Shown here piece by piece: positions 34,006-54,381 of a DNA stretch of 64,000 bases (position 1 is the first letter of the stretch; each line of letters opens with the position of its first letter). The position numbers were made by a program, and so were the translations under genes. Below the pieces are notes generated by a model. The model did not search any database, had not been told where the DNA came from, and was given only the letters and a program-made list of their open reading frames with translations. The stretch is taken from the IMG/VR virus record IMGVR_UViG_3300005973_000002, one strand, 5' to 3'. The stretch is from a virus. Taxonomy: Duplodnaviria > Caudoviricetes.

Positions 34006-34731
34006 ATGGGTAAAAAATCTTGGACAGTAGACTGGTCTAAAGTTGACTGGTCTAAAAACAATGCTGAAATAGCAAGAGAATTAAATGTTGACACTTCAAG
34101 TGTTTGGTCGAAACGAAAAAATTTAGGACTTGCTTCATCGACTAAGAAAATAAATTCAGGTATTGAAAACTTGCCTAATGGAGCAGCCATAAATTGGGAT
34201 AAAACTAAAAGATTTAAAGATGGGAACTCAATTAGGCGAATTTTCTGTCTGAGGTGTGGTATTTGCAAACAATGGAGAATGGTTAGGACAGTAAATATAG
34301 GAAAAATCAGACAAGGAAAAATGTCAATCTGTTTGTTATGTTCGAAAATTATAAGGAGCGGTCAAAGTAAAACAGGTATGGTAGGAAAACACTATAACAG
34401 TTCTGGGTACATTGTATGTCTACTTGACTTCTTTTCAGAAAAAGAACAAAAAATTCTTAAACCAATGTCAGTAACACATAATGGAAAAAGAAATCCTGAA
34501 ATACTTGAACATAGAGCTATTATGGCACTAAGCCTCAAAAGACCTCTTTTATCAAATGAGGTTGTTCATCATATCAATGGAGTTAAAGATGATAATAGGA
34601 TAGAAAATCTTGAGCTTCTCAATAGAAATGAACATTCTGGTGAACACAGAAAACTCCTCCTGGAGTTAAGAAAATTAAAAATTGAAAACAAAAAACTCAA
34701 AGAAAAGCTTGTTGCAGCAGAAATTTTTTAG
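34006..34731 (+). mobile_element. Free-standing HNH homing endonuclease
   Basis: EHRAIM..EVVHHINGVKDDNRIENLEL..EH motif; N-terminal HTH-like segment; AT-rich. Confidence 0.85.
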
Positions 34732-34845: not shown

Positions 34846-35661
34846 TCAAAAGATGTACATCGTGTCATATTCCTTTTCAAAATCGTCATATGCCTTTTCA
34901 AGCACATCTTTTGGAATGTCGAAATTGTTACTTGCAAAGTTTAGTGCGTCTTCGTAATCATTCCCTCTTCGATTAACGCTTGTCCAAAAATATTGCGCAG
35001 CGTATTGCAAATCCGACTTGCTCCATTGCTTATCCTCGGCCTGTGTGGCATCTTCTGACTTAATGAAGTCGCTTTTTCTCTTAATGAAGTCGCTTTTTCT
35101 GCCAATATCTGTATCTCTAAATACCGGTTCCCCCCAATGGGTACGTTCCTCTTCTTCTTCCCACGTAGAACCATAAAGATCGCCTAGTTGATCCTCATCA
35201 TACTCTGGATCAGTCTCGTAACCTGGTTCTCTGATGGTAAGCCCTTCATCTTCTGGATCAAAATCATCTAAAGAAAACTCTTCATCTTGAACCGAACCAA
35301 TCATTGTTGGAGGTTGCTGATAATCTACGCCGAGTTCATAATCTTCACCTGGCTTAGGCTGCCAAAGTGTTTCAATGTCTTCTAACGCATCTTTTGCAAA
35401 CTGTGCTTCGCCAATGTTTTTTCGGTCGCTTTCTTCGGCACCAGTAAGCTTTTTGTAAGCAGTTGAAAGCTGGCCCTCAATTTCCTTTGCCATCTCTTGA
35501 TCTTCATCCAAGCCTTTTTCGATGGCAGTTTGAAGTGCTTCCATAGCATTTCTTACATAATGCTTAGCATCCTTAAGGCGGTCTTCGCCTGGATTAGGCT
35601 CGGTCTTTTCTTGTAACACTCCGGCCAATCTCATCCAACGTTCTTTAAGAATTTTTGTCAT
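34846..35661 (-). CDS. Acidic protein with KILKERWMRLAG leader (putative head internal protein)
   Basis: ATG at 35661 with GAGGG SD; RWxxLAG motif followed by LQE. Confidence 0.7.
   Translation of the reverse strand: MTKILKERWMRLAGVLQEKTEPNPGEDRLKDAKHYVRNAMEALQTAIEKGLDEDQEMAKEIEGQLSTAYKKLTGAEESDRKNIGEAQFAKDALEDIETLWQPKPGEDYELGVDYQQPPTMIGSVQDEEFSLDDFDPEDEGLTIREPGYETDPEYDEDQLGDLYGSTWEEEEERTHWGEPVFRDTDIGRKSDFIKRKSDFIKSEDATQAEDKQWSKSDLQYAAQYFWTSVNRRGNDYEDALNFASNNFDIPKDVLEKAYDDFEKEYDTMYIF
35059..35100. repeat. Perfect 21-bp tandem duplication (encodes RKSDFIK twice)
   Basis: CTTAATGAAGTCGCTTTTTCT occurs twice in tandem, in frame. Confidence 0.95.
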
Positions 35662-35695
35662 TTTTTTTCCCTCGAACCAATCTGGTAAATCCATA

Positions 35696-35944
35696 CTATG
35701 GATACGGCGGCCCACTTTTATCGGCCTTGCGATTATCGCATTTCTTGGTTAAGTAGTTTATTGTCGATGATAATTCAAATGGTTTTGGTGGGCAAACAAA
35801 AGGAAATAAAGCATGCAAAATCAAAAAAATAGCAGAAATAAAAAAATGAAAAGAAACACCGAGGGCAAATTTAGCGTGCTGCCAATAAGTTTCTCCCTGT
35901 TCTCCTGGATGTTCGGTGAAAAGTTTTGAAAGTTTCTGAAGCAT
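35696..35944 (-). CDS. Small membrane protein, DUF6356-like
   Basis: LFTEHP..QGETYWQH..FA......HALFPF pattern. Confidence 0.7.
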   Translation of the reverse strand: MLQKLSKLFTEHPGEQGETYWQHAKFALGVSFHFFISAIFLILHALFPFVCPPKPFELSSTINYLTKKCDNRKADKSGPPYP

Positions 35945-35956
35945 GCATTTAAATAG

Positions 35957-35979
35957 AAAAAGGCGGCCATTCGGCCGCC
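35957..35979 (-). terminator. Rho-independent terminator
   Basis: GGCGGCC stem with a 4-nt loop, followed by a T run on the minus strand. Confidence 0.7.
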
Positions 35980-35983
35980 GTGT

Positions 35984-36646
35984 CTATTTGTTGAATATGG
36001 ACAACGGTTTCACAATTTCCTCAGGCTTGGCAGTGTCATATAAATGCATTACAAGATCATAATCAAATGTATCAAACATTACCAAATCTGAGCTGAATTG
36101 TCCATTGTCTTCTTTAAACATATTAGTCGGTATAGTAAGCTTGTTTTTATTGTCTAAAACATGTAAAACATGTTTAACGGTATAAAAAACGATGTTTTTA
36201 TGACAAGACTTTTCAAAATTTTCTGCTGCTTTTACCGTTGTGTGCTTGCGAATTTGTATGAACTCATCTGTAATCATGATAGTTTCTGGAACAAGAAATC
36301 TTTTGGTTTTCCCAATTTCAGAAATCTCTTTCGTGGGACCCAAAACAATATTTGCTTCCATTTCTTCTGAACTGGCACACGTTAAGTTACCAACGCCAAA
36401 ATCGTTTTCTTCGTAGTTGTCAATACCCTCTGGAGATGTAAGCAAAGTACCTGGAACGAATTTAGAAACTTTTGGTTTTATATGAACTACTTCTTCTAAA
36501 GTTACTTCCCCTCTAAATGCATGTTGATTCAAATTTGGATCGGTTCGTTTGCTGCCAATTTTTTCTAAATTAGAGGCAACTTCATCAAGTGAACGATTAA
36601 AGTATCTATCAATCTGTTTAAAAAAGGTTTGTTTCGTATCTTGCAC
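35984..36646 (-). CDS. Hypothetical protein
   Basis: 220-aa ORF, GTG start, own terminator. Confidence 0.65.
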   Translation of the reverse strand: MQDTKQTFFKQIDRYFNRSLDEVASNLEKIGSKRTDPNLNQHAFRGEVTLEEVVHIKPKVSKFVPGTLLTSPEGIDNYEENDFGVGNLTCASSEEMEANIVLGPTKEISEIGKTKRFLVPETIMITDEFIQIRKHTTVKAAENFEKSCHKNIVFYTVKHVLHVLDNKNKLTIPTNMFKEDNGQFSSDLVMFDTFDYDLVMHLYDTAKPEEIVKPLSIFNK

Positions 36647-36696
36647 GGCTTGCCTTTGTTTGCTAATTACCGATTAGCATACGATGAGTTCTTGAT

Positions 36697-37394
36697 TTAG
36701 TCTATATTGCGCAGCCATGAATCGTCGTCTTCTTCAAAATCTTCCGACAAAGAATCAATCATAGCTTCGATCTCTTCAACAGACTTGTCTTCCAGACTAC
36801 GCCGAGGACGAATTCCGTAAACATCCTTGTATACATCCCTATAAGTCTCAATTGCCAAATATTTTGCTAAATCTTCACCGGTTCTTACGTCATATTGTTC
36901 CCAATGAGAAGGATCGACAACTAGTTTAAATGGTCCTTTTGACTGCTTGTTAAGAAGCTCGGCATATTCCGATGCAGTCTCCGGATACTTGCTTTCCCCA
37001 AGGCACCTTCTGCATGTATGGCTTTTAAAAATTTCTTACGATGTTTGGCGTCTTGGAAGGGCTGTAAAGCCGAAACTTTTTTATATGGCCCATCTACCGA
37101 ATCATTAGTTCCAAAGTAAGCAGCGACGTCCTGGGCCGCTTCAGGTGATGTTCTTTCAGCTATCGAAGATGTTGATTCTCCTAGTACGGAAGAGAGATAT
37201 CGTTTAATGTTATGAGTAAGATCATCGAAGACTTCTGGGGCATCTACTGGATCAAGCTCAAGGTCTTTGATTAGGCCAGCCACATGTTTATTAACAACAC
37301 TTGCAACATGGTCATGTTTGGCCATGTGATAAGACGATTCTTTAACAATACCAGCAAGCCGCTGCCATCTCTCTTTTATTATTTTATTTGACAT
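36697..37394 (-). pseudogene. RWxxLAG-leader protein continuing by -1 frameshift into a start-less C-terminal domain (..YRDVYKDVYGIRPR..)
   Basis: MSNKIIKERWQRLAG start at 37394. The -1 frame is open from about 37035 to a TAA at 36697, reads LGESKYPE...HWEQYDVRTGEDLAKYL, and has no early start codon of its own. Confidence 0.65.
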
Positions 37395-37842
37395 CTTTTT
37401 CGAGGCCGTGCTCATCATCCTGATCATCGCCAGCTTCATCTTGAAGATAGTGTGCTACAACGTCCATCATTTCTGCTGCGAGAGTAAGCTTGCTTTGCAC
37501 CCAAGCTTCAAGTTGCGCATCTTCTGGAAGCTTTAAAAGCAATTCTTTGGAATATTTGCGGATTTTTTCAAGTTGACCTCTGGCCATAGAACCCTCGTGG
37601 TCTTCATCAGGCTCAACTTCAATTTTATCAGGATCCAATTCTGGAGCCATCTCTTCTAAAATTCCCTCAAAATTGTATTCCGGTTGTTTAGGACGATTGC
37701 CGAATGGATTACCCATTGGTGCTGGACTTGCCATTCCAAGATTCATAAAACCTTCATTAAGCCGTTCTCTTTCTTCTGTTCCTACAGAAGACTCCTTGAG
37801 TCCAGCGAGCTGTTGCCATCTGTTTTTGTTTATTTTATTCAT
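37384..37842 (-). CDS. RWxxLAG-leader protein with HEGSMARGQL..WVQSKLT..HYL domain (putative head internal protein)
   Basis: NRWQQLAGLKES leader; the C-terminal motif resembles ones I recall from T4-like phage virion proteins. Confidence 0.7.
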   Translation of the reverse strand: MNKINKNRWQQLAGLKESSVGTEERERLNEGFMNLGMASPAPMGNPFGNRPKQPEYNFEGILEEMAPELDPDKIEVEPDEDHEGSMARGQLEKIRKYSKELLLKLPEDAQLEAWVQSKLTLAAEMMDVVAHYLQDEAGDDQDDEHGLEKDVK

Positions 37843-37843
37843 A

Positions 37844-38056
37844 TCAACCTTCCGAATGCCAAGAACCTAATTCTTCTGCAAGCCATTCATCTTCATCAGC
37901 AGGATCCCAACCAGGCTCTTCTTCATCAGAGCGTTTTTTGTCTCTCTGCCACTCAGAAGATGAATCATCTGAATCCTGTATATCAATTTCCAAATCATCA
38001 GCTTCCTTGAGTAAGCCAGCCAATTTCATCCATCGCTCTTTTAAGATTTTGGCCAC
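37844..38056 (-). CDS. Very acidic 70-aa protein with KILKERWMKLAG leader
   Basis: Leader followed by LLKE, then a D/E-rich peptide. Confidence 0.75.
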   Translation of the reverse strand: MAKILKERWMKLAGLLKEADDLEIDIQDSDDSSSEWQRDKKRSDEEEPGWDPADEDEWLAEELGSWHSEG

Positions 38057-38099
38057 GATAATCCTATAAGCTTAACTAGCGGATACTGAATGGTTGTTC

Positions 38100-38491
38100 C
38101 TATTTTGAATTGCCTATTGTCATATGAAAACAAGCTTTTCCACTTGGAGGCATGTTCCACTTTGCCCATTTTGGTAATCCAAGTTCTTCTCTTGTTTTTT
38201 CAAGAAGGAAGAGTGGCAATTAAGCCACCAATAAGTTTCATCATACCAAATGTAGGGTTCATACTCAAAGCTAATCACTTTGTTCTCATACAAGCCCCAC
38301 TTTTTCATATTCAAAGGTCGTTCATTTCTAACAACTGTAATATGAGGTGCATAACGACCAGGCCGACACTTCTGAGACTTTGGAACGAAATTACGATAAT
38401 AACGAGCAATCTCCGTATCGACCAAAAGCGTTAGCTTATAATTGCTTTCGTCAATTATGAAATACTTGAGCACACCTTCAGAACTAAACAT
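38100..38491 (-). pseudogene. 2H phosphoesterase (two HxT motifs), split by a -1 frameshift at the A6 run 38195-38200
   Basis: APHITVV in frame 0; the -1 frame gives TREELGLP...CFHMTIGN followed by TAG at 38100. Confidence 0.75.
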
Positions 38492-38567
38492 TAAAAATAT
38501 TCCAGGAATTTTTAAAAGAAAAAGCCATACTATGAGTATGGCAAACATCAATTAGATTCAAAATGTC

Positions 38568-38873
38568 TTACTTGTCAGCTTTTGCTTTTTCTGCAAGGCT
38601 GTTAAGCCATGCAGTCAAGTTCTCATCAACAATAAAATTCCCGACTTCCTTACCTAACTCTTGTAACATTGCTACATCTGCTTCTTCAGACGGTTCAAGC
38701 CAATAGTGTAATGCGTACCAAGCTTGTACTGCTTCATCCATAGATTGAATAAAAGTATCGAGAAGCTCTTTTCCTTCTCCTCCTAAGTCTTGTTGTAGAA
38801 TATCGTTTCCGCCAACCTGTTCATTGATGGCTTCTCGGATCATTTCTCTAAGTTGTGACTTGGTTATTTTCAT
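38568..38873 (-). CDS. Acidic protein with MKITKSQLREMIREAINE leader
   Basis: ATG at 38873 with GGAG SD and an upstream CTATTTAAG motif; the longer ORF start at 39035 is unlikely. Confidence 0.75.
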   Translation of the reverse strand: MKITKSQLREMIREAINEQVGGNDILQQDLGGEGKELLDTFIQSMDEAVQAWYALHYWLEPSEEADVAMLQELGKEVGNFIVDENLTAWLNSLAEKAKADK

Positions 38874-38898
38874 TTCATACTCCGACAAGCTTAAATAG

Positions 38899-38927
38899 AA
38901 AAGACCTGGCTTTTGGCCAGGTCTTTT
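38899..38927. terminator. Bidirectional rho-independent terminator
   Basis: AAAAGACCTGGC-TTTTG-GCCAGGTCTTTT. Confidence 0.8.
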
Positions 38928-38946
38928 CTGGGTTGCAAAGCTGAAA

Positions 38947-39792
38947 TTAGTTATGTTCTTTACTGTGACATTTGGAACACAGGACAACGCCGGACACATT
39001 GTTTTGAATGTGGTAGTCAGCAACGGCTTCTGCAATTTGATCTTTGATATTAATCAAATTTTGATCATTTGCTGGTGCATTGCTGTTGTAATAATGATCC
39101 CATTTAAATTTTTTAGCAAATTTACGAATTATGGAAGACATTGTTTCTTTGTTGTGATGTATTTCCAAGCCAGGACCAGGTTTTTTACACATGACACATT
39201 GAAATTTTGCCGCTTTAAGCAAAGGATATTTCCAATTTGAATAAAGTTTAATACTACTACGACAATATTGATTTAGTGGGCTGATACCACCTTTCCATTG
39301 GCTATGGTTCTCTTTGTGAAGTGTCGGTATTGTTCCATCTAAACGTCCTTTGCGCATACGTTTTGAACGTTTTTCAATTTCAACTTTATTTGTTTTAATG
39401 GAGTTAGCCATTTTGGCTATGCGGTCGTCGGTTTCTTTTGATAAACCTTTGCCCCAATGTTCACTAGTTTCTTTTAGGTGAAATGGTTTCCAGCCTCCAC
39501 TTTCAATCATCTTTTTACGTGTTTTAGCGCTGTTTTGTTGGGCTTTGTTTGAAACAAAATTATTTTTTTCTGGTATGCGTGCTGCGTGTCCATGAATAAA
39601 TTCACGAAACCCACGAGTTATATCAAGAAATTTTACTTCCCCGCCACAACCACAAGCACACGTGGGCTCTCTGCCATTGTAATACAAGTCAACAATTAAA
39701 TCTTTTGACTTTTTCTTGTGCCCTTTTCTGTAATGGACAGACAAAGAAATAAGTTTTTCATATTGGTTTTTGCACAAAGGGCACTTAAACAC
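38947..39792 (-). mobile_element. Free-standing HNH homing endonuclease with Zn-finger-like N-terminus
   Basis: CPLC and CACGCG motifs; WKGG...FQCVMC..LEIHH..VLCSKCH. Confidence 0.8.
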
Positions 39793-39868
39793 AAAACTCT
39801 CCTTGAACTGTCTTCTAAGGAGAGTTTACCATGTTGTTTGATATTTGTGTACTGCGAACAAATATATT

Positions 39869-40360
39869 TTAAAACTGCAAAACTGCGTTATCGAAGCGAA
39901 TGGTCAATGAGATTTCTGCAAGGTCAGCAGTTGAATCATAGGAAACGTCGTTGAAGTTTGCTTCTGTAATGAATGCACCCTTGATGTCCCAAAGTTGAAC
40001 TACGGTACCAACTGGGTCAAGCATCTTGAGTTGGATGTCACGCTTGTAGAAATCAGCGTAACCACCACGGCCAGAAACAGATTCAAAGCAAAGACGCACC
40101 CACTCCATAACTTGCTGCGCACCAGCAGGTGCGATTGGATCGTGAAGAGTTACTGAAATTGTACTGAAGGTTGTCTTACCTGCGAGGTAACGAGTGTGGT
40201 TGATCCAGTTGACTGTAATTTCCTCTGTGGTGTATGTTGGTCTAGCTGCGGTTTTTACGATAAAGGAGTCAATGCCTTCAATAGCAAGCAAGAACCTACG
40301 TTTTGCAAGTGGTTCAAACTTAGTAGGAAGCATATCTGTTACTGTAAGTGTCTCTGCCAT
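39869..40360 (-). CDS. gp19: Tail tube protein (gp19-like)
   Basis: FEPLAKRRFLL..RYLAGK..ISVTLHDPI..QVMEW..YKRDIQLKMLDPVG..WDIKGAF pattern. Confidence 0.9.
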   Translation of the reverse strand: MAETLTVTDMLPTKFEPLAKRRFLLAIEGIDSFIVKTAARPTYTTEEITVNWINHTRYLAGKTTFSTISVTLHDPIAPAGAQQVMEWVRLCFESVSGRGGYADFYKRDIQLKMLDPVGTVVQLWDIKGAFITEANFNDVSYDSTADLAEISLTIRFDNAVLQF

Positions 40361-40475
40361 TGTTTATTCTCCGACTGTTCCTTTGCTTAAATAGTGGTTG
40401 CAACGGTTTTTTGAAGATTCGTATGAAATCCTGTAGATATAAATAGTCAAATAAAAAAGTTTATCATCGAACTCC

Positions 40476-40865
40476 ATGTCTTACTTTGTCCTAATTACGT
40501 TTATGCACGTTTTTTGTCATGGAAGAATTGGTGACGCACCAATTAAAATGCGTGTGCTTAGCACCGATGCCGAAAGAGCCTGCGGATATCAATTCGAAAA
40601 AGACATTCCAAAACCAGGCGAAGGCTTATTGTTTTTGTTTGATGAAGAATCTTCTCGCCATTTTCACATGAATAATGTAATGTTTGATTTAGATTTGCTT
40701 GGATTTGATAAAAATGGCCATTTGGTTTGTTTTATTCCCATGAAATCAGGAACACAAACACTTTACAAGACTCCCCCGGTCAAATATGTTGTAGAAACAT
40801 CAAGAGGCTGGTTAAATGGTTTGAAACCAGAAAGATGTGCTTTGAGAGTTAAAAAAGTAGTTTAA
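40476..40865 (+). CDS. DUF192 family protein
   Basis: ..ER..G.QF......EGLLFLF......FHM.NV.FDLD..F..K.YVVE pattern. Confidence 0.85.
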   Translation: MSYFVLITFMHVFCHGRIGDAPIKMRVLSTDAERACGYQFEKDIPKPGEGLLFLFDEESSRHFHMNNVMFDLDLLGFDKNGHLVCFIPMKSGTQTLYKTPPVKYVVETSRGWLNGLKPERCALRVKKVV

Positions 40866-40868
40866 TTA

Positions 40869-41714
40869 TCACAATTTTTTGCTATCCTTAACTCTTTGCT
40901 GAAGAAGATAAACATACGTCTCGTGAGTGTTGGCTGATGATGCAAGTTGATCATTCAAACCAAGCGTCATGGCATCCATTTCTTCCAAAGTTGCAAACAT
41001 TTCCTCAACAAATTTTATATAAGCTTTTTCAAGACGAAGTCCGGCTTTTGCGATATTGTGAGCACTGTCGCTTACCTTACAACCTGCTTCTTCCATTATT
41101 TCAACAGCGTTGCTTGTAATCATCAGAGGGCAAGCAAGCAATTCATCGTTGGTAACACCGACAGCTTTTTCTATGGCGCCATCAATCTCATCTTGGACTT
41201 CAGTATATATCCTTCCATAAAGGTCTTCATGGTCACCAGCGAATCCAGTGCCTTTGGTAAGATGATGAGCTGCGTGAAACCAAAGATGAATTGCTCTAAG
41301 ATAAGAAACGTATCCAGCGAGCCAGTTCTTGACATCATCGATTTCATCTCTGACATCATCTCTTTGTTGCTCCAAACTTGAGATAGGAGCAAGTCCAGAA
41401 ATTACTGGTTCAACTGGCGCATTCATATCTGCAACCATGTCAACTTGCTCATCTAATTCTTTATACGGGTTGTAGTCAAGATCAAAAGCATATGAATCAC
41501 TCTTTGGATCGTAGTCCGAACGCATCCAGGCTGGTGCCCGACGACCACCAATATATTCTTCATCATCAACAACAACAGTTCGAGGAAGTCTTGGTTCTGC
41601 TTTTGATTTTAGATCGGCCAATTCTTCTTCTTCGTCTTCACGGGAAGGCCAGCGATCTTCATATCCTTCAGTAAGAAGTCCTGCTAATTTTTTCCATCTT
41701 AGTTTATTGCTCAT
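40869..41714 (-). CDS. RWxxLAG-leader protein with C-terminal Dps/ferritin-like domain
   Basis: RWKKLAGLLTEG leader; HLWFHAAHHLTKGTGFAGDHEDLYGRIY..QDEIDGAIEK matches the Dps ferroxidase pattern. Confidence 0.75.
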   Translation of the reverse strand: MSNKLRWKKLAGLLTEGYEDRWPSREDEEEELADLKSKAEPRLPRTVVVDDEEYIGGRRAPAWMRSDYDPKSDSYAFDLDYNPYKELDEQVDMVADMNAPVEPVISGLAPISSLEQQRDDVRDEIDDVKNWLAGYVSYLRAIHLWFHAAHHLTKGTGFAGDHEDLYGRIYTEVQDEIDGAIEKAVGVTNDELLACPLMITSNAVEIMEEAGCKVSDSAHNIAKAGLRLEKAYIKFVEEMFATLEEMDAMTLGLNDQLASSANTHETYVYLLQQRVKDSKKL

Positions 41715-41720
41715 ACGTGC

Positions 41721-42974
41721 TCACCCTTCTAAGTAGTGCAAAAGCTTATCAATTGATAATGTTGACTCAATCTTAGGTTTCTTTTCCTTTTCCACTAATT
41801 CCATCACTTGATCGATAATGTTTTTCATGGCCAGCTTGCCAAGCTTAGCACCGCCTATTTCCATCATGCTTAGTTTTTCTTCAAGCCTATCTCTTCCTAC
41901 GCTACCCATCATTTTTAGAAACTTCAAGTATTTCTCTTCCATTCCTTCTCGGTTTTCAAACCTAGCTAAGGCTTTCACAAAATCTTGAAGATCTAAATTT
42001 GGGTCAGCCATGTGTATCTCTGGATCAAAGAAAGTTTCTTCTTCGTATCGATCTAAAACTCTACGTCGATTATAAACATCACGTTTTTTCAAATATTCCT
42101 TACGATCGTACTCAACCCATTGGTTACTTTCATGTTCGTAAATCCAGACCTTTGTAATTTGGGTTGGCTTTACAACTCCTATCAACAAACCTTGAGGCTC
42201 TGCGCCCGACGACAACATTGTGTGACTCATGTACGGACGAAATGAGTTAGGAAACTTTTCTTTAATCCAGTCGAATATTTCTTTACCTTTTTCCTTTTGC
42301 TGTTTACGGCCAATAAAACCACTGTAGTTAGTTCCATGGATGAACTTCGCTGGAACCTTTATTTCTATAATGGCACCACCACCAAAGTTCTTAGCAACTT
42401 CAAAATCTGGAGTAACAAACAAGCCCCTATGAACAGGCCCGCCATAATCTCTTGGTATGTCTTGGGTTGCATCAAATCCACTTAGCAAAAGAGGAAGTCT
42501 GAACTTAGGGGTCCCATGATATACCGTGATTACATCATTTGGTTCTGCTGATGCGATTTTTTCCACTTGTTCTGGAGATATGGCCTCAAGAAACATCAAA
42601 AGCTTATTGAGCTTAATGGATTCGTTTATATTATCAACCATTGACAGTACCTCAGGGTTAACTACGTAGATTTGTTGGTGGCCTCTTCGATAATCAGAAC
42701 GATCCCAAACCACATCAAAGCCTTTAGAACGAAATCTTTCATCCATCCCTTCAGCGTATCCCATAGTATCCATACTTGGAACGCCCCAAGAAAGTTCGCC
42801 AATATCAAGCCACCTAGCGTTAGGATCAATTCTAAATGCGTAAACATCGCCATGCAGCTTAGCCAAATTTTTGCTTGGTGTTAGATATATTGAACGCAAA
42901 GGTCCACTAATTCCCTTTTCCGTCCCATGATACCAGATGTTAACATTTGGTTTTATTAGATTCATTTGGTCCAA
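41721..42974 (-). CDS. Tandem ADP-ribosyltransferase-like domains
   Basis: WYHGT..IYLTP..AK.HG.VY and VYHGT..GLFVTPDFEVAKNFG.GAIIEI motifs. Confidence 0.7.
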   Translation of the reverse strand: MDQMNLIKPNVNIWYHGTEKGISGPLRSIYLTPSKNLAKLHGDVYAFRIDPNARWLDIGELSWGVPSMDTMGYAEGMDERFRSKGFDVVWDRSDYRRGHQQIYVVNPEVLSMVDNINESIKLNKLLMFLEAISPEQVEKIASAEPNDVITVYHGTPKFRLPLLLSGFDATQDIPRDYGGPVHRGLFVTPDFEVAKNFGGGAIIEIKVPAKFIHGTNYSGFIGRKQQKEKGKEIFDWIKEKFPNSFRPYMSHTMLSSGAEPQGLLIGVVKPTQITKVWIYEHESNQWVEYDRKEYLKKRDVYNRRRVLDRYEEETFFDPEIHMADPNLDLQDFVKALARFENREGMEEKYLKFLKMMGSVGRDRLEEKLSMMEIGGAKLGKLAMKNIIDQVMELVEKEKKPKIESTLSIDKLLHYLEG

Positions 42975-43013
42975 CTAGTTTTACCCGAATAATTAGCAAT
43001 CAGGAGCATAAAT

Positions 43014-43619
43014 GTGGCAAAACAAACACTGGAAGAAGAAATTAACAAGCTTGTCAAAGAAGAGATTGAAAAGAACAAGTATGGGCGTGTCTTGTCAGAG
43101 GGAATGCGATTTCATCTTGAAAATGGTATCAGTTTTTATGACAACATTTATCGTGTAAAGTCGAAAGCGTTCTTTTCCCTAATGAGGGAAATGAAAGAAC
43201 TTTACACCGAAGGCAAAATTCAACTCTCTGAACAAGAAAAAGAATTGATCGAACAAGGCGTTGGTGAGTTTGCCATCTACGAAAACAAAAAAGTTCCTCT
43301 CGGCATTCCGATGATCGAAGGAAGCGAAATGCTTGATGAGGCCGAGTATCAAGGAAAAGATGTTGAACTTGGCAAACCAAAGCGTGGTGGATCCAAAAAG
43401 TTTTATGTTTATCAAAAATGCGGGGATAAAGTCAAGAAAATCTCCTTTGGTTCACCAGATATGAGTGTGAAAGTATCAGATCCTGAACGCCGAAAATCTT
43501 TTGCCGCTAGACACAATTGTGAGGATAAAAACGATCGTTGTACCGCAGGTTACTGGTCATGTAGAATTGGTCGTTATCCGTCATTGACAGGCGCATCTAA
43601 ATCGTATCGTTGGTGGTAA
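43014..43619 (+). CDS. Conserved phage protein (LDE-AEYQG..KKFYVY..KKISFG..DPERRKSFAARHNC..YWSC)
   Basis: Motif recalled from T4-like phages; acidic leader followed by an LDE site. Confidence 0.7.
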   Translation: MAKQTLEEEINKLVKEEIEKNKYGRVLSEGMRFHLENGISFYDNIYRVKSKAFFSLMREMKELYTEGKIQLSEQEKELIEQGVGEFAIYENKKVPLGIPMIEGSEMLDEAEYQGKDVELGKPKRGGSKKFYVYQKCGDKVKKISFGSPDMSVKVSDPERRKSFAARHNCEDKNDRCTAGYWSCRIGRYPSLTGASKSYRWW

Positions 43620-43888
43620 TGTTTCCGTTCAAAGAAAAGACGTTATCAACTAATGTTGTAATCCGTGAGTTCGACCCAAATGTCGATTCGGAAGAGTTGG
43701 TTTGGCACCGAGATAAAGAAGACCGAATTGTTGAAGTAATGCAAGCTGATGACTGGTGGTTCCAATACGACAATGAAATACCCAAGCTAATGGAAGGAAC
43801 ATTGTTTATTAAATCCAAGACATGGCACAGGGTTATTAAAGGTCCAAATTGCAAGAGACCACTGGTTTTTAGAATAGAAAAGAAATAG
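43619..43888 (+). CDS. Small cupin-like protein
   Basis: WHRDKEDR...WHRVIKG His pair; ATG overlaps the upstream stop (TAATG). Confidence 0.65.
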   Translation: MFPFKEKTLSTNVVIREFDPNVDSEELVWHRDKEDRIVEVMQADDWWFQYDNEIPKLMEGTLFIKSKTWHRVIKGPNCKRPLVFRIEKK

Positions 43889-43896
43889 TTATCTCC

Positions 43897-44721
43897 ATGG
43901 GAAACGTTGAACGACTATTAAAATGGCTCCTTGAAGCCGATTATGATGAGAGGGAAAGATTCGGCTTAGACTTCGTTCTAAATGAACCAAGTAGGAAAAA
44001 AATCCCTCATGAAAAAATGAATCTTCAAAAAAACGAAAGTTATCATAATATTCTTTCTGTACTGAAAAAAGCAACCAAAGATGAAATCGACTACTGGAGC
44101 AACTGGTATCAACATGCTCATCAACACGTAAGAGAATTAGCAGAAAGATATGAGCTGCCGTTGCCAGTTACCGCTGCCGTTGTTGCCGTTCTCAGTCCGA
44201 ACCTTGGCTGGAAAGTCAATCTCTTGGCCGCACAGAGGCTAATAGAAAACTGGTTGATGCTTGAAGGCGAACGTGATTTGGGGCCACTTGAAAAAGTTCC
44301 TGCATACAAATCGAACGTTTATAAAGCTTTGAAGATCCTCGACACCGGAGATGTTGGTCTTGTTGCAGGTCCAAAGGTTTCCGTGTTTTTTCATTCTTTG
44401 TTGAATCCCGACAGAGTCGAAAGAGAGTTGGTTCTTGATGGACATGCAATCAATGTGTGGAGAGGAATTAAAACACGTCTCCAAGATCTAAGACAACCAA
44501 CAAAGGCTGAAAGAGAAGCTATCATTCATGATTACAGAAAAGTAGCAGACCTAGTTGGATTGACTCCACAAGAACTTCAAGCTGTTACTTGGTTTATCTG
44601 GAAAGCCGTAAAGAATCCACCAAACATTCATGGCAAATATCCAACGAAGAAAAAGAAGATAAATAAAAAGAAACCAAAATCAGTAGTTGAAGGACTCCTA
44701 GAGTACCTGTTTGATCAGTAA
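43897..44721 (+). CDS. Putative HhH/DNA-glycosylase-like protein
   Basis: WY..AH.....AAVVAVLSP...W..N...GPKV..F..L.NP...DGHA...QAVTW motif series, which I recall from phage helical glycosylase-like proteins. Confidence 0.5.
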   Translation: MGNVERLLKWLLEADYDERERFGLDFVLNEPSRKKIPHEKMNLQKNESYHNILSVLKKATKDEIDYWSNWYQHAHQHVRELAERYELPLPVTAAVVAVLSPNLGWKVNLLAAQRLIENWLMLEGERDLGPLEKVPAYKSNVYKALKILDTGDVGLVAGPKVSVFFHSLLNPDRVERELVLDGHAINVWRGIKTRLQDLRQPTKAEREAIIHDYRKVADLVGLTPQELQAVTWFIWKAVKNPPNIHGKYPTKKKKINKKKPKSVVEGLLEYLFDQ

Positions 44722-44725
44722 TCAA

Positions 44726-45097
44726 TTAGCCAAACACTGCTGCGTTTCTAGCTTCTTTTTTTGAATCAAACGGGCCATGTACATTAGGTCCGCCCCATTC
44801 TGACTCAGTTGAATAATACCATCCTGATGGAACTACCAGGATTTCATCACCAATCTTTAACTTAAGATCTTTAGGTAAGCGACCAACGCTTATCTGAAGT
44901 TCGTCGTATCCTTCTGTATCGGTTTCCGTTTCAAGGTCATGAAGCGAGTACACGATTTTGTCTGCTGCCTTAGATGGCAAGGATGGTAATTTGCCATGTT
45001 CGTCAAGCCAGCTTTGATACGTTTCCCCGACCATTAGACCCTCTTCATATTCTTTTATAAGCCCAGCGAGTTTCTTAAGACGTCTTTCTGTTAACAT
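44726..45097 (-). CDS. Protein with RRLKKLAGLIKE leader
   Basis: Variant of the RWxxLAG leader; SD GGAG. Confidence 0.7.
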   Translation of the reverse strand: MLTERRLKKLAGLIKEYEEGLMVGETYQSWLDEHGKLPSLPSKAADKIVYSLHDLETETDTEGYDELQISVGRLPKDLKLKIGDEILVVPSGWYYSTESEWGGPNVHGPFDSKKEARNAAVFG

Positions 45098-45191
45098 TTC
45101 TACTCCAAGTAATCATCATACTTTTTTAGTATGAAGTTTTTGTATGCTCTCTTGAGCAATGTGACACAACAATTATTGAATTCAAGCTTCG

Positions 45192-45806
45192 TTATTCGTC
45201 CAAACACGCTTCAAGTTCGGCTTGTTCAAGGACCGACAAGAGAGATTCGAGATTCAACGCTTTGTGTTCAACAACTTGCTTTTTGTTGATTAGATATTTC
45301 ATGCGCTCATATGAATCTTTGGCTGCATCTAAAAGCTGCTCGTCAGTTGTCTCTTCCTTGAATCCACCAAGTCTAAAGCCGTAATCTCTAGCCCAAGCAC
45401 GAAGAAACTCAAGAAGTTGTTGTTTGTCCAACATGACACCCTGATAAGGAATCTTTTCATGCCAATGTCGGTAGATTGAAGCAAATTGCCTCATCATTTC
45501 TTCTTGCCCGCCACTTTGAAATTCATCCTCGAAGTCAGTTTCTTTCGGCTCGTCTTCTAACTCTGATAAGGCAGTTTCCAACTGTTCTTGCTTCATTGCA
45601 AACAACACATCAAGTTCTGTAGCATTGGGATCCCCCTCTTCATATGCCTTTTGAACTTTTCTATCCAACAATTCCACTTCTTTGGCGAGCTTTTTTATAA
45701 ATGGTGGATAAGCAACCTCATCTTTTGGTTCCGTTCCGTATTCGAGTGCCTCATGTTGAGCACTGGATTCAAGAAAGGTTAATAACGATTTTAGGTTACT
45801 GTTCAC
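45192..45806 (-). CDS. Acidic helical protein with LKSLLTFLE leader
   Basis: GTG at 45806 lies 3 nt after a CTATTTATA motif. Confidence 0.65.
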   Translation of the reverse strand: MNSNLKSLLTFLESSAQHEALEYGTEPKDEVAYPPFIKKLAKEVELLDRKVQKAYEEGDPNATELDVLFAMKQEQLETALSELEDEPKETDFEDEFQSGGQEEMMRQFASIYRHWHEKIPYQGVMLDKQQLLEFLRAWARDYGFRLGGFKEETTDEQLLDAAKDSYERMKYLINKKQVVEHKALNLESLLSVLEQAELEACLDE

Positions 45807-45834
45807 TAGTATAAATAGTGACTTTAACAACGAA

Positions 45835-45855
45835 AGCCTCGTCTTTGACGAGGCT
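45835..45855 (-). terminator. Hairpin/terminator after the GIY-YIG gene
   Basis: AGCCTCGTC-TTT-GACGAGGCT. Confidence 0.55.
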
Positions 45856-45877
45856 CTAAAATCTTGTTAGTAAAAAC

Positions 45878-46771
45878 TTAGACTATCCAACCAGAAGCAC
45901 TTTTACACTTACCACTCATCATTTTTGCAAAGCTTGAATATGAAATGCCACGCTCACGGCAATCAGCTTTGGCATTCTCACCAACCACAAACATCTCACC
46001 AGACACCTTGTTCTTCAAGACAACACCAGCATATTTACCACCCGCTATCTTGGCTCTATGTTCATCCGACAAAGGTTTTCTTTTTTCACCCTTGCGTTCC
46101 ACGTAAGTCGGTTCTTCCGTGCCAAGAAACCAACCGCCTGAAGATTTAGTCTTGCCTTTGAGCATTAAATGAAATGACTTATAAGAGAGATTTCTTTCTT
46201 GGCACCAAGACCTGACAGAACCTTCAATGGTAACAGTTTCACCAGTCTTTTTATTGGTGACGGTTACATCAGCAGAATGGTTATCCCAACGCTTTTGAGC
46301 GTTCTTGAGAGCTTCTTCTTTTTTCTTTGGTGTGTTCCACGTCTTTTTGTTTTTCTTGCTTACAATAGCACACACTTCTGGCGTTCGTGATGTTACTCGC
46401 CCGTCTGTTTCTGGGTTAAATGGACGAACATTTTTGCTACCTTCTCTACTTTCTGCTTTTGGACAAAGGTTGTAACATTCGTTTCCTCCATCAAAAAATT
46501 TATCAAGGTAAGCCTGTTCTTTAGCGAGTTGTTCTTCCCTGGCTCCATCTACTGTTTCTATTGCTTCAAATATAAATGCATCTTCGCCACATTTGTTATA
46601 ATCTCTTTGTAAAAACAAATTCGCATGCCTATTTCTGCGCAAATCGTCCCGATGAGAATAAGCTCGTTCTTTTAAACGAGAAGCGGATCCATAATAATAA
46701 CGTCCATTTTTTGTATTAGTAATTTTATAAATACCACGCTTATTTGCATATCCGTGTAAAAATATTTTCAT
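45878..46771 (-). mobile_element. Intact free-standing GIY-YIG homing endonuclease
   Basis: RGIYKITN..YYYGSA..R..H..L..N.H.N..LQ..YNK.G..F..E motif; C-terminal repeated DNA-binding modules. Confidence 0.88.
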
Positions 46772-46895
46772 TACTGCCTTCCACTCTATACTATAGAATA
46801 GGGCGCATAGGGCAGGATATATACCCCCATATCTAACACAGTAACAATATCAAAAATAGCGGGTGGGCCTTGAAAACACAAGGGAATTTTAAAAG

Positions 46896-46925
46896 AAAAA
46901 AGCGACCAACAAGTGGTCGCTTTTT
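46896..46925. terminator. Bidirectional terminator downstream of the capsid gene
   Basis: AAAAAAGCGACCA-ACAAG-TGGTCGCTTTTT. Confidence 0.85.
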
Positions 46926-46955
46926 CGTTTTTTTGCCGGCGAGGGCAGGAATAAT

Positions 46956-48878
46956 TTAAATTATACCCATGTCAAGAACAGTTACGGTTGCGTAGAAGTC
47001 ATTTCTGACCATCTTCTTACCGTATCGGGTCATGACGCCCTTACGTGGAGTAAAGTCTTCCTGAGCGTAGATAACTGGAGTAAGGATAAGTGGCACGTAT
47101 GGTGCGTAGATGAATCCTGACTCAAGGAAGGTGTTACCCTTCAATCCGATCAAGAGCTTGTTGCTTGGGAAATATGGGTCTTTGTAGACCGTGTAACGGT
47201 TGTTCAAAGTACCAACTGCCTCTGCTCCGATTACCATGTTGTCACGAACCTGACCGTCAGCATCTACTCTGTAGGAAGGCTTGTAGGCAACAAGGTGCTC
47301 AAGGATGGTGCAGACATCTGGGGAAGTAACAATGAAGTTACCGGAACCACGGAGTGTCTTACGGTGAATGGTGTTTGCTGCGTCCGTAACAGTCTCAAGG
47401 AGGGTCTGGTACCACTCTTGAATGTTTACGAATGCCATTGGGCCTGGAGAAAGCGTGCTGCTCTGGAGAGCCTCTGCGCCGGTGAACTTGTTGACAAGCT
47501 TACCTGGTGCTCGGGACCAGTAGAGGTTTGCTGCTCCTGCCTGGGTGAGAAGGTCGTTCAAGATTTCACGGTCAATGTCAAGCGTAATCATCTCGGAGAG
47601 AATGTTTGTAAGCTCAACTTCTACATCGATTGAGTAGAATGCTGTGAGATCCTGAGCCATTTCTGGCGACCAACGAGCCCTGAGCTTACGGGTTTGTGCC
47701 GTAACGCTGGTGGACTCAATGCGGATGTCAACCTCTGGGATACGTGGGCTTGCGTCGACTGCGAAGTCAGACTCGAAGCTTGGAATCGTAAGAGTTGAAC
47801 CGTCAGAGTTTACGCTGAGTGCGTCTGCGATAGCTGCCGAAGCAGTTACTGCATTACCGACAGCTCCATCAGGTGCTGGTGCGGTACCTGCATTTGCAAG
47901 ACGAACTACGTGAAGCACGTGTGAACCGTTAAGCGGATCTGGTGTGAAGATACCAGTTGCTGAGTTCCAGTTACCACGCTGGTTCATCTGACGAAGGTTA
48001 AGCACGCCTCGACCACCTTGATACTTCTCTCCCCACTCAACAGCAGAGTTGGTTGCTGCACCGAAACCGGTGAGTGCAATCTGGTTGAGGTTGTTGAGGT
48101 CAGCACCGTTGATCTTGTCGGTAAACTCAGATGCGCTGACAAACACGAAGCAGTAATCAAGTACGCCATCGGTAAGGTCGTTTTCAACACGAGTATCGTA
48201 CATGACGAAACGTGCGTTGAGACCTTCGAAGTCATCAGCGGTGTCTACTGTGCCACCTGGGGTCCAAATGGAGCCAGATGCCCAGTAACCAACAGAGTCG
48301 GTTGAACCAGAAAGGAAACGGCTCTGCTTGTGAACCTTGGAGTAACCATGACCTACAAGGTCATACTGTCCACCGGTTGCAAGAGAACCAGAACGTACGC
48401 CAACACCACGTGGGTTGTTGTATACGGAATCCTGGCTGGTGTAAGTTGATGGATCTACAACGCTAGTTGTTGCAAACTGGTTAGCTGCGGTTCCTGCGTC
48501 ACCACCAACCGAGCTGCCGTAAGTGTAATCGAGGTAGAAAAGAAGACCGGTTGGAAGGCTCATTGGCTGAACCGACACGATCTCGTTTGAAATCAAACCT
48601 GCGAAAACACGGCGAACGATTGGGAATGCAACGTTTGTGAAACCTGCAATCTTCCCGCTTGAGGTCAAAGAAGCACCACCAAGGGACAAAGCGTTGGTTT
48701 CCTTGAGAAGCTCAGCTGCCTGGTTCTCAAGAAGACGTGCCATGCCATCTCGGTTCATGCCTTTTAGGCCCTCAAGAAGACCAGTTGCTCCCCACTTCTT
48801 TACGAGTCGTGGTGAGTCTGCACCAAGCGAGCGACGGTGTACGCCTTCTGCGAGTTGCTCTAAAGTGAAAGTCTTCAT
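46956..48878 (-). CDS. gp23: Major capsid protein (T4 gp23 family) with large insertion
   Basis: AFPIVRRVF..IVSVQPM..PTGL.FYL; AQTRKLRARWSPEMAQDL..E..LDIDREIL; RKTLRG.GNF; GFIYAPYVPL; F.PRKGVMTRYG motifs. Confidence 0.97.
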   Translation of the reverse strand: MKTFTLEQLAEGVHRRSLGADSPRLVKKWGATGLLEGLKGMNRDGMARLLENQAAELLKETNALSLGGASLTSSGKIAGFTNVAFPIVRRVFAGLISNEIVSVQPMSLPTGLLFYLDYTYGSSVGGDAGTAANQFATTSVVDPSTYTSQDSVYNNPRGVGVRSGSLATGGQYDLVGHGYSKVHKQSRFLSGSTDSVGYWASGSIWTPGGTVDTADDFEGLNARFVMYDTRVENDLTDGVLDYCFVFVSASEFTDKINGADLNNLNQIALTGFGAATNSAVEWGEKYQGGRGVLNLRQMNQRGNWNSATGIFTPDPLNGSHVLHVVRLANAGTAPAPDGAVGNAVTASAAIADALSVNSDGSTLTIPSFESDFAVDASPRIPEVDIRIESTSVTAQTRKLRARWSPEMAQDLTAFYSIDVEVELTNILSEMITLDIDREILNDLLTQAGAANLYWSRAPGKLVNKFTGAEALQSSTLSPGPMAFVNIQEWYQTLLETVTDAANTIHRKTLRGSGNFIVTSPDVCTILEHLVAYKPSYRVDADGQVRDNMVIGAEAVGTLNNRYTVYKDPYFPSNKLLIGLKGNTFLESGFIYAPYVPLILTPVIYAQEDFTPRKGVMTRYGKKMVRNDFYATVTVLDMGII

Positions 48879-48933
48879 GGTATTCTCCTCAAATCTCCTG
48901 TTTCTAAGTATGTGTTAAAATATCTATTTTCCG

Positions 48934-51195
48934 TTAGTCAACCTTTTTGATCCCGGCAAGTACCTGCCAGCGATTTGCGGATTGGCCATTGGAATCATGA
49001 CCTGCCTGTGGCTGAGCGGCCTCAGTGAGGTTTGCGCTCCCTGGTTTGGTCACCTTAGAGGAAGAACCACCCAATTTGCGGGAAGCTGATGCATGCTCGT
49101 CGAGCCTGCGCTTAATTTTTGTGTAAATAGCCTTTGTCTCGGCTACGGATGCACCCTTGTCAAGGTGCTCGACAATTTGCTGTAGAGCCTTCTTGGTGAG
49201 TGCTTTTTCAGAGAGTGCTCTCTGAAGGAATTTGCTGTAGTAAACTGTCTTTGAAGTGAACAAGTTGGTCTCTGCGAGCTGTCTGTTCAATCCTTCAACC
49301 TGCTTGCCTCTTGCTTCAAGAAGCTTGACAGCCTTTGCGAGCTTCTTTTCAAGAAGTCTGTTCTTACGTGCGAGGTGTTTGAACTTACGGGATTCCATGT
49401 GCATTGCCTCTTCCATCTCATCTGCAAGAACCATGTCTTCTTCTGCGGATTCCATATCGTCTACGTCGCCACCAAGGTCAACATCCATTTCGTCATCCTC
49501 GTCATCAACGATTTCAACTTCCTCATCCTCAGCACCTACATTGAGATCAACGTCTACGTCAAGATCATCAACACCAAGTGCTGCCAACTCTTCTTCAACC
49601 TCTGGCGGAAGGTCTACCGAAAGAACAAGATCTGCGGCATCATCAACACCAAGGTCATCATCTTCCATCATATCCATTTCGTACATGCTTTCTTTCATTT
49701 TAAGATTGCTCTTATGTTTCCTGTCCTCAAGGTTCTCATGGGAACCGTCATCACCACCTTCTGGTTCGGCATCTTCCCATGACTCTGCTTCTTTGCCGTC
49801 GGAAGCTTCTCTAAGAGCATCAAGCTTACGTTTGATATTTTCCTTGCGGATTGCCCTTACTGCCTCTGCAAGTTCGGCGTCATCAACTTCAAACTCTGCG
49901 ACTGGTTCTTCGTTAGTGTCACCAAAGCCAGCTGCACCTTCTGCAACGTCATCATTTGCATCAGTGTTTGCGTCTGCGCTGTTCTCATTCATTGAACGAG
50001 TAACGGTTTGATCCTGATCTTCCTCATCAACAACAGGCTCGGCCTCATCCCAAGGACGATCGTGCACATCGCCACTAATTGCATCTGCATCAACAGAGCC
50101 AGCGGTTCCACCCTTCATCTCTTCGGCAAGCTTGCCCTCCTGAGCGACTTCAACGTCTTCGGGACCACCAAGATGTGGATCAACACCAGATACATCAGCT
50201 GCGTGACGTGAATATTCGTCATCAACTTTCAAACCGGACTCGCCAGTGTGAGCAGAATCCTTAGCGAGGTTTTCATCTTCCTCGAAAAGTTTTGCTGCAA
50301 ATTCTTTGAGACTTGTCATATCGGTACCTTTACCTTGTTCTTTCTTCAAGTAACTATTATCCAAACCTGCCTCTTTCAGCTTTAAGAATAAAAATTCTAA
50401 CTTGTTTTCGTTGAGACGAGCTTGTTTGTTAGTAATTAGGCCCCGATCTCGCATTCCATCCAAAGCTTCGACTAAATCAAAAAGTCTCTTTTTAAGAGAA
50501 CTTCTCGTGATGTCAGAAACTCGTCCTGAGAAATAAGCTCGATCAATCCGTTCAGAAATATTACTAAGGACCCTATTGTATTCTTTATAAGAAACCGCCT
50601 CTGTTGGAAGCGGTGCAACTTCCTCTTCTTCTTCAGTTGGCTCACCAGCAGCTGGTTGAACTGGTGCTGCTGGACCAGCAGTTTCTGGAGCTGGCACAGC
50701 AGCTGGCTCTGTCGGCTGAGTTGGCTGTGCACCTGCTGGAGCACCTGCTGCTTGGAGTGGTGCCTCTCCAGGCGTAATTGTAACCTGATCCGAGTCAGCG
50801 TCTACAAAAAGATCTTCGAAATCAACAACGATCTTTCCATCTTCATCTGGCATAGAAGCACCAACCAAATCCTCACCGCCAGGTGCAGGAACTGGGGCGT
50901 CCACTGTTTGATCGCCAAGCTCTCCTGCAACCGTTTGAGTCGGATCAGTTGTGCCGGCTGGAGCAGTGGTTGGTTGTGTACCACCCATACCCTGAGGGTC
51001 TGGTGGTAGTTGAGGCGAAACCTCCTCTTCATCTTCCTGTTCAAAGAAGAAGTCCGAGGAACCCATAGCTTCCTTCGCAATTACTTTTTTAATGTAAGGG
51101 GTGAGTTCTTCAATTAAGGCTTTCTTCGCATCGGCCTCTGCGATTTCCTTAAGCTTTTCAGCGTCCCTTACTGCTTCTGTAAAAAGATCTGTCAT
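48934..51195 (-). CDS. Prohead core scaffolding protein (gp22-like), very acidic
   Basis: Lies immediately upstream of the capsid gene; D/E-rich, C-terminal coiled coil, ends NRWQVLAGIKKVD. Confidence 0.8.
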   Translation of the reverse strand: MTDLFTEAVRDAEKLKEIAEADAKKALIEELTPYIKKVIAKEAMGSSDFFFEQEDEEEVSPQLPPDPQGMGGTQPTTAPAGTTDPTQTVAGELGDQTVDAPVPAPGGEDLVGASMPDEDGKIVVDFEDLFVDADSDQVTITPGEAPLQAAGAPAGAQPTQPTEPAAVPAPETAGPAAPVQPAAGEPTEEEEEVAPLPTEAVSYKEYNRVLSNISERIDRAYFSGRVSDITRSSLKKRLFDLVEALDGMRDRGLITNKQARLNENKLEFLFLKLKEAGLDNSYLKKEQGKGTDMTSLKEFAAKLFEEDENLAKDSAHTGESGLKVDDEYSRHAADVSGVDPHLGGPEDVEVAQEGKLAEEMKGGTAGSVDADAISGDVHDRPWDEAEPVVDEEDQDQTVTRSMNENSADANTDANDDVAEGAAGFGDTNEEPVAEFEVDDAELAEAVRAIRKENIKRKLDALREASDGKEAESWEDAEPEGGDDGSHENLEDRKHKSNLKMKESMYEMDMMEDDDLGVDDAADLVLSVDLPPEVEEELAALGVDDLDVDVDLNVGAEDEEVEIVDDEDDEMDVDLGGDVDDMESAEEDMVLADEMEEAMHMESRKFKHLARKNRLLEKKLAKAVKLLEARGKQVEGLNRQLAETNLFTSKTVYYSKFLQRALSEKALTKKALQQIVEHLDKGASVAETKAIYTKIKRRLDEHASASRKLGGSSSKVTKPGSANLTEAAQPQAGHDSNGQSANRWQVLAGIKKVD

Positions 51196-53424: not shown

Positions 53425-53425
53425 T

Positions 53426-54280: not shown

Positions 54281-54381
54281 TTACAGCTGCCCTTGCAGTT
54301 CCGGCACTGACAGCAGCCACAACAGCAGCAACAGTGCTCAGAGTTGAAAAGATTTATTAAACGGTGGAGTAGACCCTTCAT
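54277..54381 (-). CDS. 34-aa Cys-rich microprotein (metallothionein-like), not in the ORF track
   Basis: MKGLLHRLINLFNSEHCCCCCGCCQCRNCKGSCK; GAGAGGT SD upstream; its TGA overlaps the GTG of the next gene (GTGA). Confidence 0.7.
   Translation of the reverse strand: MKGLLHRLINLFNSEHCCCCCGCCQCRNCKGSCK

Follow-up and report, generated by a model that had tools for sequence, protein, structure and literature searches.

How does the closing peptide of a phage head scaffold come to open six other genes? This question is raised by a 64-kb stretch of DNA (64,000 nucleotides, hereafter the window; IMG/VR record IMGVR_UViG_3300005973_000002), which is part of the genome of an uncultured giant T4-like phage. 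An initial annotation of the window had described an RWxxLAG motif at the C-terminus of the scaffold and at the N-termini of six genes, and had proposed that cargo proteins imitate the docking peptide of the scaffold to enter the prohead. A six-frame scan with the pattern [RK][WLFM]xxLAG[ILV] returned exactly seven matches, all on the minus strand and all in real open reading frames (ORFs): one at the scaffold C-terminus and six at the N-termini of the ORFs starting at 35661, 37394, 37842, 38056, 41714, and 45097. All seven copies described before were thus recovered. The genes and sites are the following (aa, amino acids; pI, isoelectric point):

34846..35661, minus strand: tagged gene A, 271 aa, acidic; leader MTKILKERWMRLAGVLQE at 35608..35661.
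36921..37394, minus strand: tagged gene B, 157 aa, basic; leader MSNKIIKERWQRLAGIVKE at 37338..37394.
37384..37842, minus strand: tagged gene C, 152 aa, acidic; leader MNKINKNRWQQLAGLKE at 37792..37842.
37844..38056, minus strand: tagged gene D, 70 aa, 40% Asp+Glu, GTG start codon; leader MAKILKERWMKLAGLLKE at 38003..38056.
40869..41714, minus strand: tagged gene E, 281 aa; leader MSNKLRWKKLAGLLTE at 41667..41714, then a disordered linker and a Dps/ferritin-like four-helix bundle (residues ~112-280).
44726..45097, minus strand: tagged gene F, 123 aa; leader MLTERRLKKLAGLIKE at 45050..45097, an RL variant of the motif.
48934..51195, minus strand: head scaffold (gp22 position), 753 aa, pI 4.3, 25 [LIV]xE sites; assigned by position, composition, and relatives.
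48949..48972, minus strand: scaffold C-terminal motif RWQVLAGI, residues 742-749, four residues before the stop codon; found in the six-frame scan.

The initial annotation had suggested an enrichment test, and we ran it across the window (six frames, 73 predicted proteins) and on relatives. For the full pattern, the mean over residue shuffles within the 73 proteins was 0.023 matches and the analytic expectation 0.03, as compared with the seven copies present in the window. RW..LAG was observed six times versus a mean of 0.007 in the shuffled proteins. Furthermore, all copies fall within the roughly 14% of residues that were counted as terminal.

In the six N-terminal copies, the Arg of the motif lies 6 to 9 residues past the start Met, and the leaders are 16 to 19 aa long. 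The start codons of the tagged genes are backed by ribosome-binding sites or by stop/start overlaps; for example, the ATG of gene B overlaps the stop codon of gene C. An x-x-E site had been claimed to follow each N-terminal copy of the motif, and the pattern turned out to be even narrower: the leader ends VLQE, IVKE, LKE, LLKE, LLTE, and LIKE all conform to [ILV]-x-E, a T4 gp21-type pattern. As a consensus, the leaders read M-x(3-6)-R-[WFL]-x-x-L-A-G-[IL]-x-x-E. The Arg, Leu, Ala, and Gly codons vary between the copies at nearly every motif position, which indicates that selection acts on the peptide and not on the DNA. The differing codons also rule out a DNA-level repeat or a recombination junction as the origin of the copies.

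Outside the 16- to 19-aa leader, the six tagged genes show no similarity to one another. Searches of Pfam and PHROGs yielded nothing useful for genes A, B, D, and F. Gene A had no family match and a protein atlas provided no usable lead for it, but a weak homologue in L095/L099 bears the same leader. Gene C homologues in L016/L096 are also leader bearing, and the PHROG search with gene C gave a single marginal match to an unnamed PHROG. For gene F, the homologue search found a single close homologue, in which the leader is kept (MLTEKRLRKLAGLLKE), and the protein atlas gave only template modeling scores (TM-scores) below 0.5.

We then consider the protein that carries the motif at its other end. 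The scaffold gene is located directly upstream of the gp23-type capsid gene:

46956..48878, minus strand: major capsid protein, gp23 family, 640 aa, T4-like propeptide with LLKE at its end; Pfam Gp23 2.5e-78, PHROG major head protein, and comparison with the T4 gp23 N-terminus.

The 753-aa protein has no BLAST similarity to T4 gp22, and Pfam and PHROGs gave nothing useful for it. Therefore, the label "scaffold" rests on its position, its acidity, and the gene order of relatives, which is protease, small core proteins, scaffold-position gene, capsid. In addition, N- and C-terminal homology links it to the Flavobacterium phage immuto gene that sits directly upstream of the immuto capsid gene. 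A comparison of capsid proteins places the window closest, among named phages, to a 484-kb uncultured phage, immuto, Microcystis phage Mel-JY01, and Rhodothermus phage RM378.

The scaffold tail reads NRWQVLAGIKKVD up to the stop codon, with an LTE site 20 aa upstream of the motif. The conservation of this tail was analyzed in 80 IMG/VR loci with a capsid identity of 54-93%; the gene upstream of the capsid gene could be read in 77 of them. It ends with R-W-x-x-L-A-G-[IL] in 73, and the remaining 4 have near variants at the scaffold end, e.g., ERWQKLANIG and ERWQVLSGIKK. The matching tails comprise 61 distinct sequences, of which 57 have the W, 59 the L, and 58 an I or L following the Gly; 57 run on for 2 to 5 residues past the motif Gly, and [LIVM]-x-E is found within about 15 residues before the motif in 51 (typically LNEGYEAERW). 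The scaffolds of the cultured phages immuto and Mel-JY01 end in SRWQKLAGIIK and ERMKKLAGIVK, respectively. Variant tails were seen in RM378 (ERIKRLAGL at the end) and in two phages of 484-595 kb (terminal RMQKLADIS and LKTLAGRKAK). A tblastn search with the last 68 scaffold residues gave no match.

Among the tagged proteins, that of gene E has a Dps/ferritin fold. It matches PHROG 3636, and its homologues are named DNA-binding ferritin-like protein. In the AlphaFold model, the bundle has a predicted local distance difference test (pLDDT) score above 90 and the leader is helical at residues 4-14. The top 50 Foldseek matches in the PDB were all Dps, with target-normalized TM-scores up to 0.84. 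In line with this, a profile search of PDB sequences ranked Dps first, although weakly. The family alignment shows no variation at H150, D161, H162, D178, and E182, and these His, Asp, and Glu residues are predicted to form the ferroxidase site. Directly upstream of gene E, in the same operon, lies a 417-aa gene (41721..42974) that ends in LLHYLEG and has no family match.

Homologues of gene E differ in what precedes the Dps domain. M-x(3-8)-R-[WFL]-x-x-L-A-G-[IL] opens 26 of the 120 Dps-family homologues listed, and in 25 of these 26 leaders [ILV]-x-E follows directly. Several others start with another leader (MKITKTQLRKII-type; MKITKTQLRKIINE...), and most of those listed (157-162 aa) are without a leader. 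Thus, the Dps domain occurs in three leader states and the tag is portable, as a modular address tag predicts. Beside these leaders we noted a MASPAP[LM]GNPFG element, which follows the leader in gene C (residues ~45-58) as well as in two Dps-family homologues of other phages (P0014 and P0015).

The motif is portable in relatives as well. In close relatives, other genes also bear N-terminal copies, two such copies occur in the 484-kb phage, and in more distant relatives VERWQ[RK]LAG[IL]xK forms the C-terminus of nonscaffold proteins that open with a second leader type, described below. These C-terminally tagged proteins had no Pfam match. In one relative, an internal RWGKLAGILTE stands ahead of a DGHHRW-containing, perhaps ParB-like, domain, an arrangement that suggests a polyprotein-style junction. 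Dual-tag proteins were found at L035:12014-12811, L039:7954-8931, and L048:16849-17874, a set that also includes the protein with the internal copy. In a strict pattern search of ten IMG/VR records, the reversed-pattern controls gave 0 matches.

Taken together, RWxxLAG is probably the docking tail of the scaffold, which was copied to unrelated proteins as a capsid-addressing propeptide that is then cleaved off. According to this explanation, the gp22-position scaffolds of a large clade of phages, T4-related and for the most part giant, would dock through the conserved C-terminal peptide RWxxLAG[IL]. This phage and its close relatives would have moved the peptide to the N-terminus of a Dps/ferritin-like protein and of five small, mostly acidic proteins. 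The leader would take the tagged protein to the scaffold-tail site within the assembling prohead. A gp21-family prohead protease would cut at the [ILV]-x-E right after the motif, so that the mature protein is freed inside the head; in the scaffold and in other C-terminally tagged proteins, the [LIV]-x-E a few residues upstream may serve the same release. The motif itself, where it sits, its conservation and portability, and the pattern of adjoining sites are shown directly, whereas packaging, cleavage, and the identity of the receptor are what we infer here. As the receptor we prefer the inner face or the N-arm of the capsid protein, the alternative being the core itself. The proposal of the initial annotation that cargo mimics scaffold docking therefore stands in part: tail conservation, portable terminal reuse, the adjacent protease-type sites, and the leader states of the Dps family argue for it, while prohead entry, docking on the capsid protein instead of the scaffold core or the protease, and cleavage are putative.

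The annotation had also likened the motif to the cargo-loading peptides of encapsulins. Encapsulins have an HK97-fold shell and no scaffold, portal, tail, or maturation protease, and their cargo-loading peptides are not removed. What the two share is a short peptide at a protein terminus by which cargo, ferritin-like proteins included, is brought into an HK97-fold shell. However, there is no sequence relationship, the tags described here adjoin protease-type sites, and sheath, tube, and baseplate genes around the capsid gene identify the source as a tailed phage, so the comparison holds as an analogy only. The closest working analogues are the T4 capsid-targeting sequence (CTS), the scaffold tails of herpesviruses, and the 80alpha/SaPI1 system, rather than encapsulins. 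In herpesviruses, the assembly protein UL26.5 and the protease UL26 have a C-terminal tail in common; it attaches to the major capsid protein, and cleavage at the M-site removes it. There, much as we propose for the tagged proteins, a cargo enzyme enters the procapsid via the capsid-binding tail of the scaffold and an adjacent protease site releases it. In contrast to the independent copies on separate genes in the window, the herpesvirus tail is shared because the genes are nested in frame.

The T4 CTS is a 10-aa N-terminal sequence on IPI-III and Alt, which gp21 removes at L/I-x-E (PMC9026906, citing Mullaney & Black 1996). It resembles the leaders in being a short portable N-terminal propeptide on unrelated proteins, in ending in L/I-x-E, and in belonging to a phage with a gp23-type capsid. 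Residues 4 and 7 weigh most in T4 targeting (PMC9026906), and the sole sequence feature in common is a hydrophobic i, i+3 spacing (Tyr4/Phe7 in T4, Trp/Leu here). Otherwise the sequences differ: MKTYQEFIAE in T4 versus M..(K)(E)RWxxLAG[IL]xxE, 16-19 aa, in the tagged genes. Moreover, the tag of this phage is nearly identical to the scaffold C-terminus and also occurs C-terminally and internally, whereas the reviews PMC9026906 and PMC9958956 do not link the T4 CTS to any scaffold terminus.

The staphylococcal 80alpha scaffolding protein and CpmB of SaPI1 both attach to the N-arm of the capsid protein through the same C-terminal helix-and-hook, the RIIK motif (PMC5644958). By analogy with these two tails we prefer the inner face of the capsid as the receptor. 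In that system, too, a second protein copies the extreme C-terminal peptide of the scaffold and so takes the same procapsid site, and the peptide consists of an amphipathic helix with aliphatic and Lys residues behind it that close the chain. There, however, the copy is on a competing satellite scaffold and redirects capsid size, whereas here the copies are within one phage, mostly N-terminal, and followed by a protease site.

Several points weigh against the docking-tail explanation. Five of the six tagged proteins are acidic, in contrast to the basic internal proteins of T4, so some of them may be auxiliary scaffold or core components that are expelled rather than delivered. The immuto genome has no strict R-[W/F]-x-x-L-A-G copy outside the scaffold, suggesting that N-terminal use is clade restricted. 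A tblastn search with the proteases of relatives found no prohead protease gene in the window. This gene would then lie outside it, and its presence in this genome is suggested by the relatives, a Peptidase_S77 (gp21-family) protease adjoining the scaffold in 7 of 10 relatives' contigs. A complex prediction for the capsid protein and the last 50 scaffold residues scored 0.08, below the mark, and this counts neither way on binding. Finally, for the tagged proteins of T4, binding to the core and not to the shell is usually assumed (PMC9026906).

The last point leads to the rival that keeps the same role, prohead targeting and proteolytic removal, but places the receptor in the scaffold core. The RWxxLAG helices would attach to another part of the scaffold or bundle together, and the tagged proteins would copolymerize into the core, as has been proposed for the T4 CTS. 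We give this serious rival a minor but real chance. T4 internal proteins copurify with gp22 and enter the core before the shell forms (PMC9026906), the leader is predicted to be helical, and a small core protein and the proteases of the clade bear similar C-terminal peptides, as a common core-assembly interface would give. Against this stands the contact of the extreme scaffold C-terminus with the capsid protein in solved systems (80alpha, P22, and herpesviruses); furthermore, a complementary receptor element in the scaffold was not identified. That the motif is mainly an exosite recruiting the gp21-type protease, head targeting being achieved by something else, would fit the constant adjacency of motif and cleavage-type site and the otherwise very short specificity determinants of T4 gp21. 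We regard it as very unlikely, since the scaffold has 25 [LIV]xE sites and one motif, the capsid protein is also a substrate and has no motif, and the C-terminal copies have no downstream site. Least probable of all is that the tagged genes are extra small scaffold or core proteins derived from duplicated scaffold fragments, the shared peptide being due to common descent and not to mimicry. Genes A to D are indeed adjacent, are acidic like the scaffold (the basic gene B apart), and have a common extended (K)I(L/I)KERW prefix. But the motif is at opposite termini in the scaffold and in the leaders, gene E has a Dps fold with leaderless homologues, and outside the tag there is no similarity.

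The initial annotation had listed two looser echoes of the motif, which fared differently. The capsid KKWGATGLLEG was rejected as a motif copy, as it corresponds to a conserved gp23 N-terminal element and aligns with NKWKPLLEGEG of T4 gp23. The end of the capsid propeptide, LLKE, aligns with the FLTE maturation site of T4 gp23. The other echo, HWAALAF, was substantiated. It belongs to the following protein:

51799..52290, minus strand: conserved small head-core protein, 163 aa; second-class N-terminal leader MKLNRTQFKKILKECIRELITE; C-terminal HWAALAF at 51820..51840; assigned by homologues.

Its homologues are found clade-wide between protease and scaffold. In 24 of 26, [KRH]-W-A-x-L-A-F is present a few residues before the end, together with an MKLxKxxLKxIVKECLVEILxEG N-terminus. 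This conservation marks HWAALAF as a genuine relative of the scaffold tail. The conserved N-terminus of this family is matched by a second class of N-terminal leaders, MK[IL]xK[ST][QE]L[RK]xxI[RK]E..., which replaces the RWxxLAG leader on some Dps homologues and which we observed on at least seven genes of the window:

26299..28386: second-class leader gene.
29196..29462: second-class leader gene.
30897..31598: second-class leader gene.
31661..32389: second-class leader gene.
38568..39035: second-class leader gene (internal Met).
51799..52290: second-class leader gene (the small head-core protein).
52867..53448: second-class leader gene.

Similar peptide ends were found in T4-type core proteins. 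The gp22 C-termini of T4 (SVYAKVASRF), of Acinetobacter, Aeromonas, and Vibrio T4-like phages, and of cyanophages have in common an aromatic-x-x-(x)-aliphatic-Ala-small-basic ending. The T4-like gp22 ends, Y-x-x-[VLA]-A-[SAK]-R, resemble W-x-x-L-A-G. So do those of the T4-type gp21 proteases, [YF]-x-x-L-[AI] (for example EFAKLAETLKTLL in XZ1 and AYMALAEAMKKAL in T4), and the proteases of the clade of this phage end in NEILGIRKL. About 10 scaffolds and 4 T4-type proteases were compared, and the protease tails of the clade were compared loosely. The loci used were:

L108:118-927: gp22/gp21 C-terminus comparison.
L109:2949-3587: gp22/gp21 C-terminus comparison.
L118-L122: gp22/gp21 C-terminus comparison.
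L086/L087: gp22/gp21 C-terminus comparison.

Judged by these endings, W-x-x-L-A-G may represent one form of an ancient docking peptide of core proteins. A bolder generalization, which we put forward tentatively and consider rather doubtful, is that T4-related head-core localization is a peptide code copied from the termini of core proteins, each peptide docking at a fixed receptor and cargo carrying either end. The C-terminal end would be aromatic-x-x-L-A (W-x-x-L-A-G here, Y-A-K-V-A-S in T4 gp22, and [YF]-x-x-L-A in T4-type gp21), and the N-terminal end would be MK-L-x-K-x-x-L-K-x-I-I-K-E from the small core protein 51799..52290. If so, the T4 CTS would also mimic a core-protein terminus, and the clade would show the rule plainly.

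The surroundings of the head genes provided some additional observations. In relatives L081-L087, a gp21-type protease is located ~2-4 kb upstream of the capsid gene. On the corresponding side of the window (53426..60559) there are two tandem sheath paralogues of ~1000 aa (54414..57443 and 57500..60559) and no protease, suggesting that the head module is rearranged in the window. Directly downstream of the capsid gene is a GIY-YIG homing-endonuclease-like gene (45878..46771; compare segD downstream of T4 gene 23), and more HNH/GIY-YIG genes are at 7505..8491, 13594..14651, 34006..34731, and 38947..39792. The plus-strand gene 32854..33858, which adjoins the cluster of tagged genes, looks by its sequence (MSKGLDVGTSF...) like an actin/ParM-like ATPase gene. 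The late-promoter-like element CTAATT showed no overall enrichment upstream of the tagged and head genes; it was found ~20-60 nucleotides upstream of the scaffold gene, of one sheath gene, and of the operon with gene E. Megablast of the region against phage records gave no match, with none near-identical. A 461-kb contig on record encodes a protein also found in the window, and CheckV estimates on fragments of relatives imply genomes of ~400 kb.

Capsid-targeting propeptides in T4-like phages are an already known kind of system. What this phage adds is the sequence of the tag, which is nearly identical to the invariant scaffold C-terminus, the occurrence of the tag at both N- and C-termini, and a Dps-like cargo; no account of this came up in the papers searched. 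According to a 2023 review of the T4 head, core localization of proteins "remains mysterious" and the core structure is unresolved (PMC9958956). A cargo tag that is the scaffold's own tail peptide offers a concrete, testable hypothesis for the binding partner of the tag. The minimal 8-residue element R-W-x-x-L-A-G-I, present in the scaffolds of two cultured phages, lends itself to mutation or grafting, and it might serve phage engineering as a second, orthogonal packaging tag beside the T4 CTS. For the biology of the clade, the prediction is that its giant phages would hold a Dps-like DNA-protecting protein in the head.

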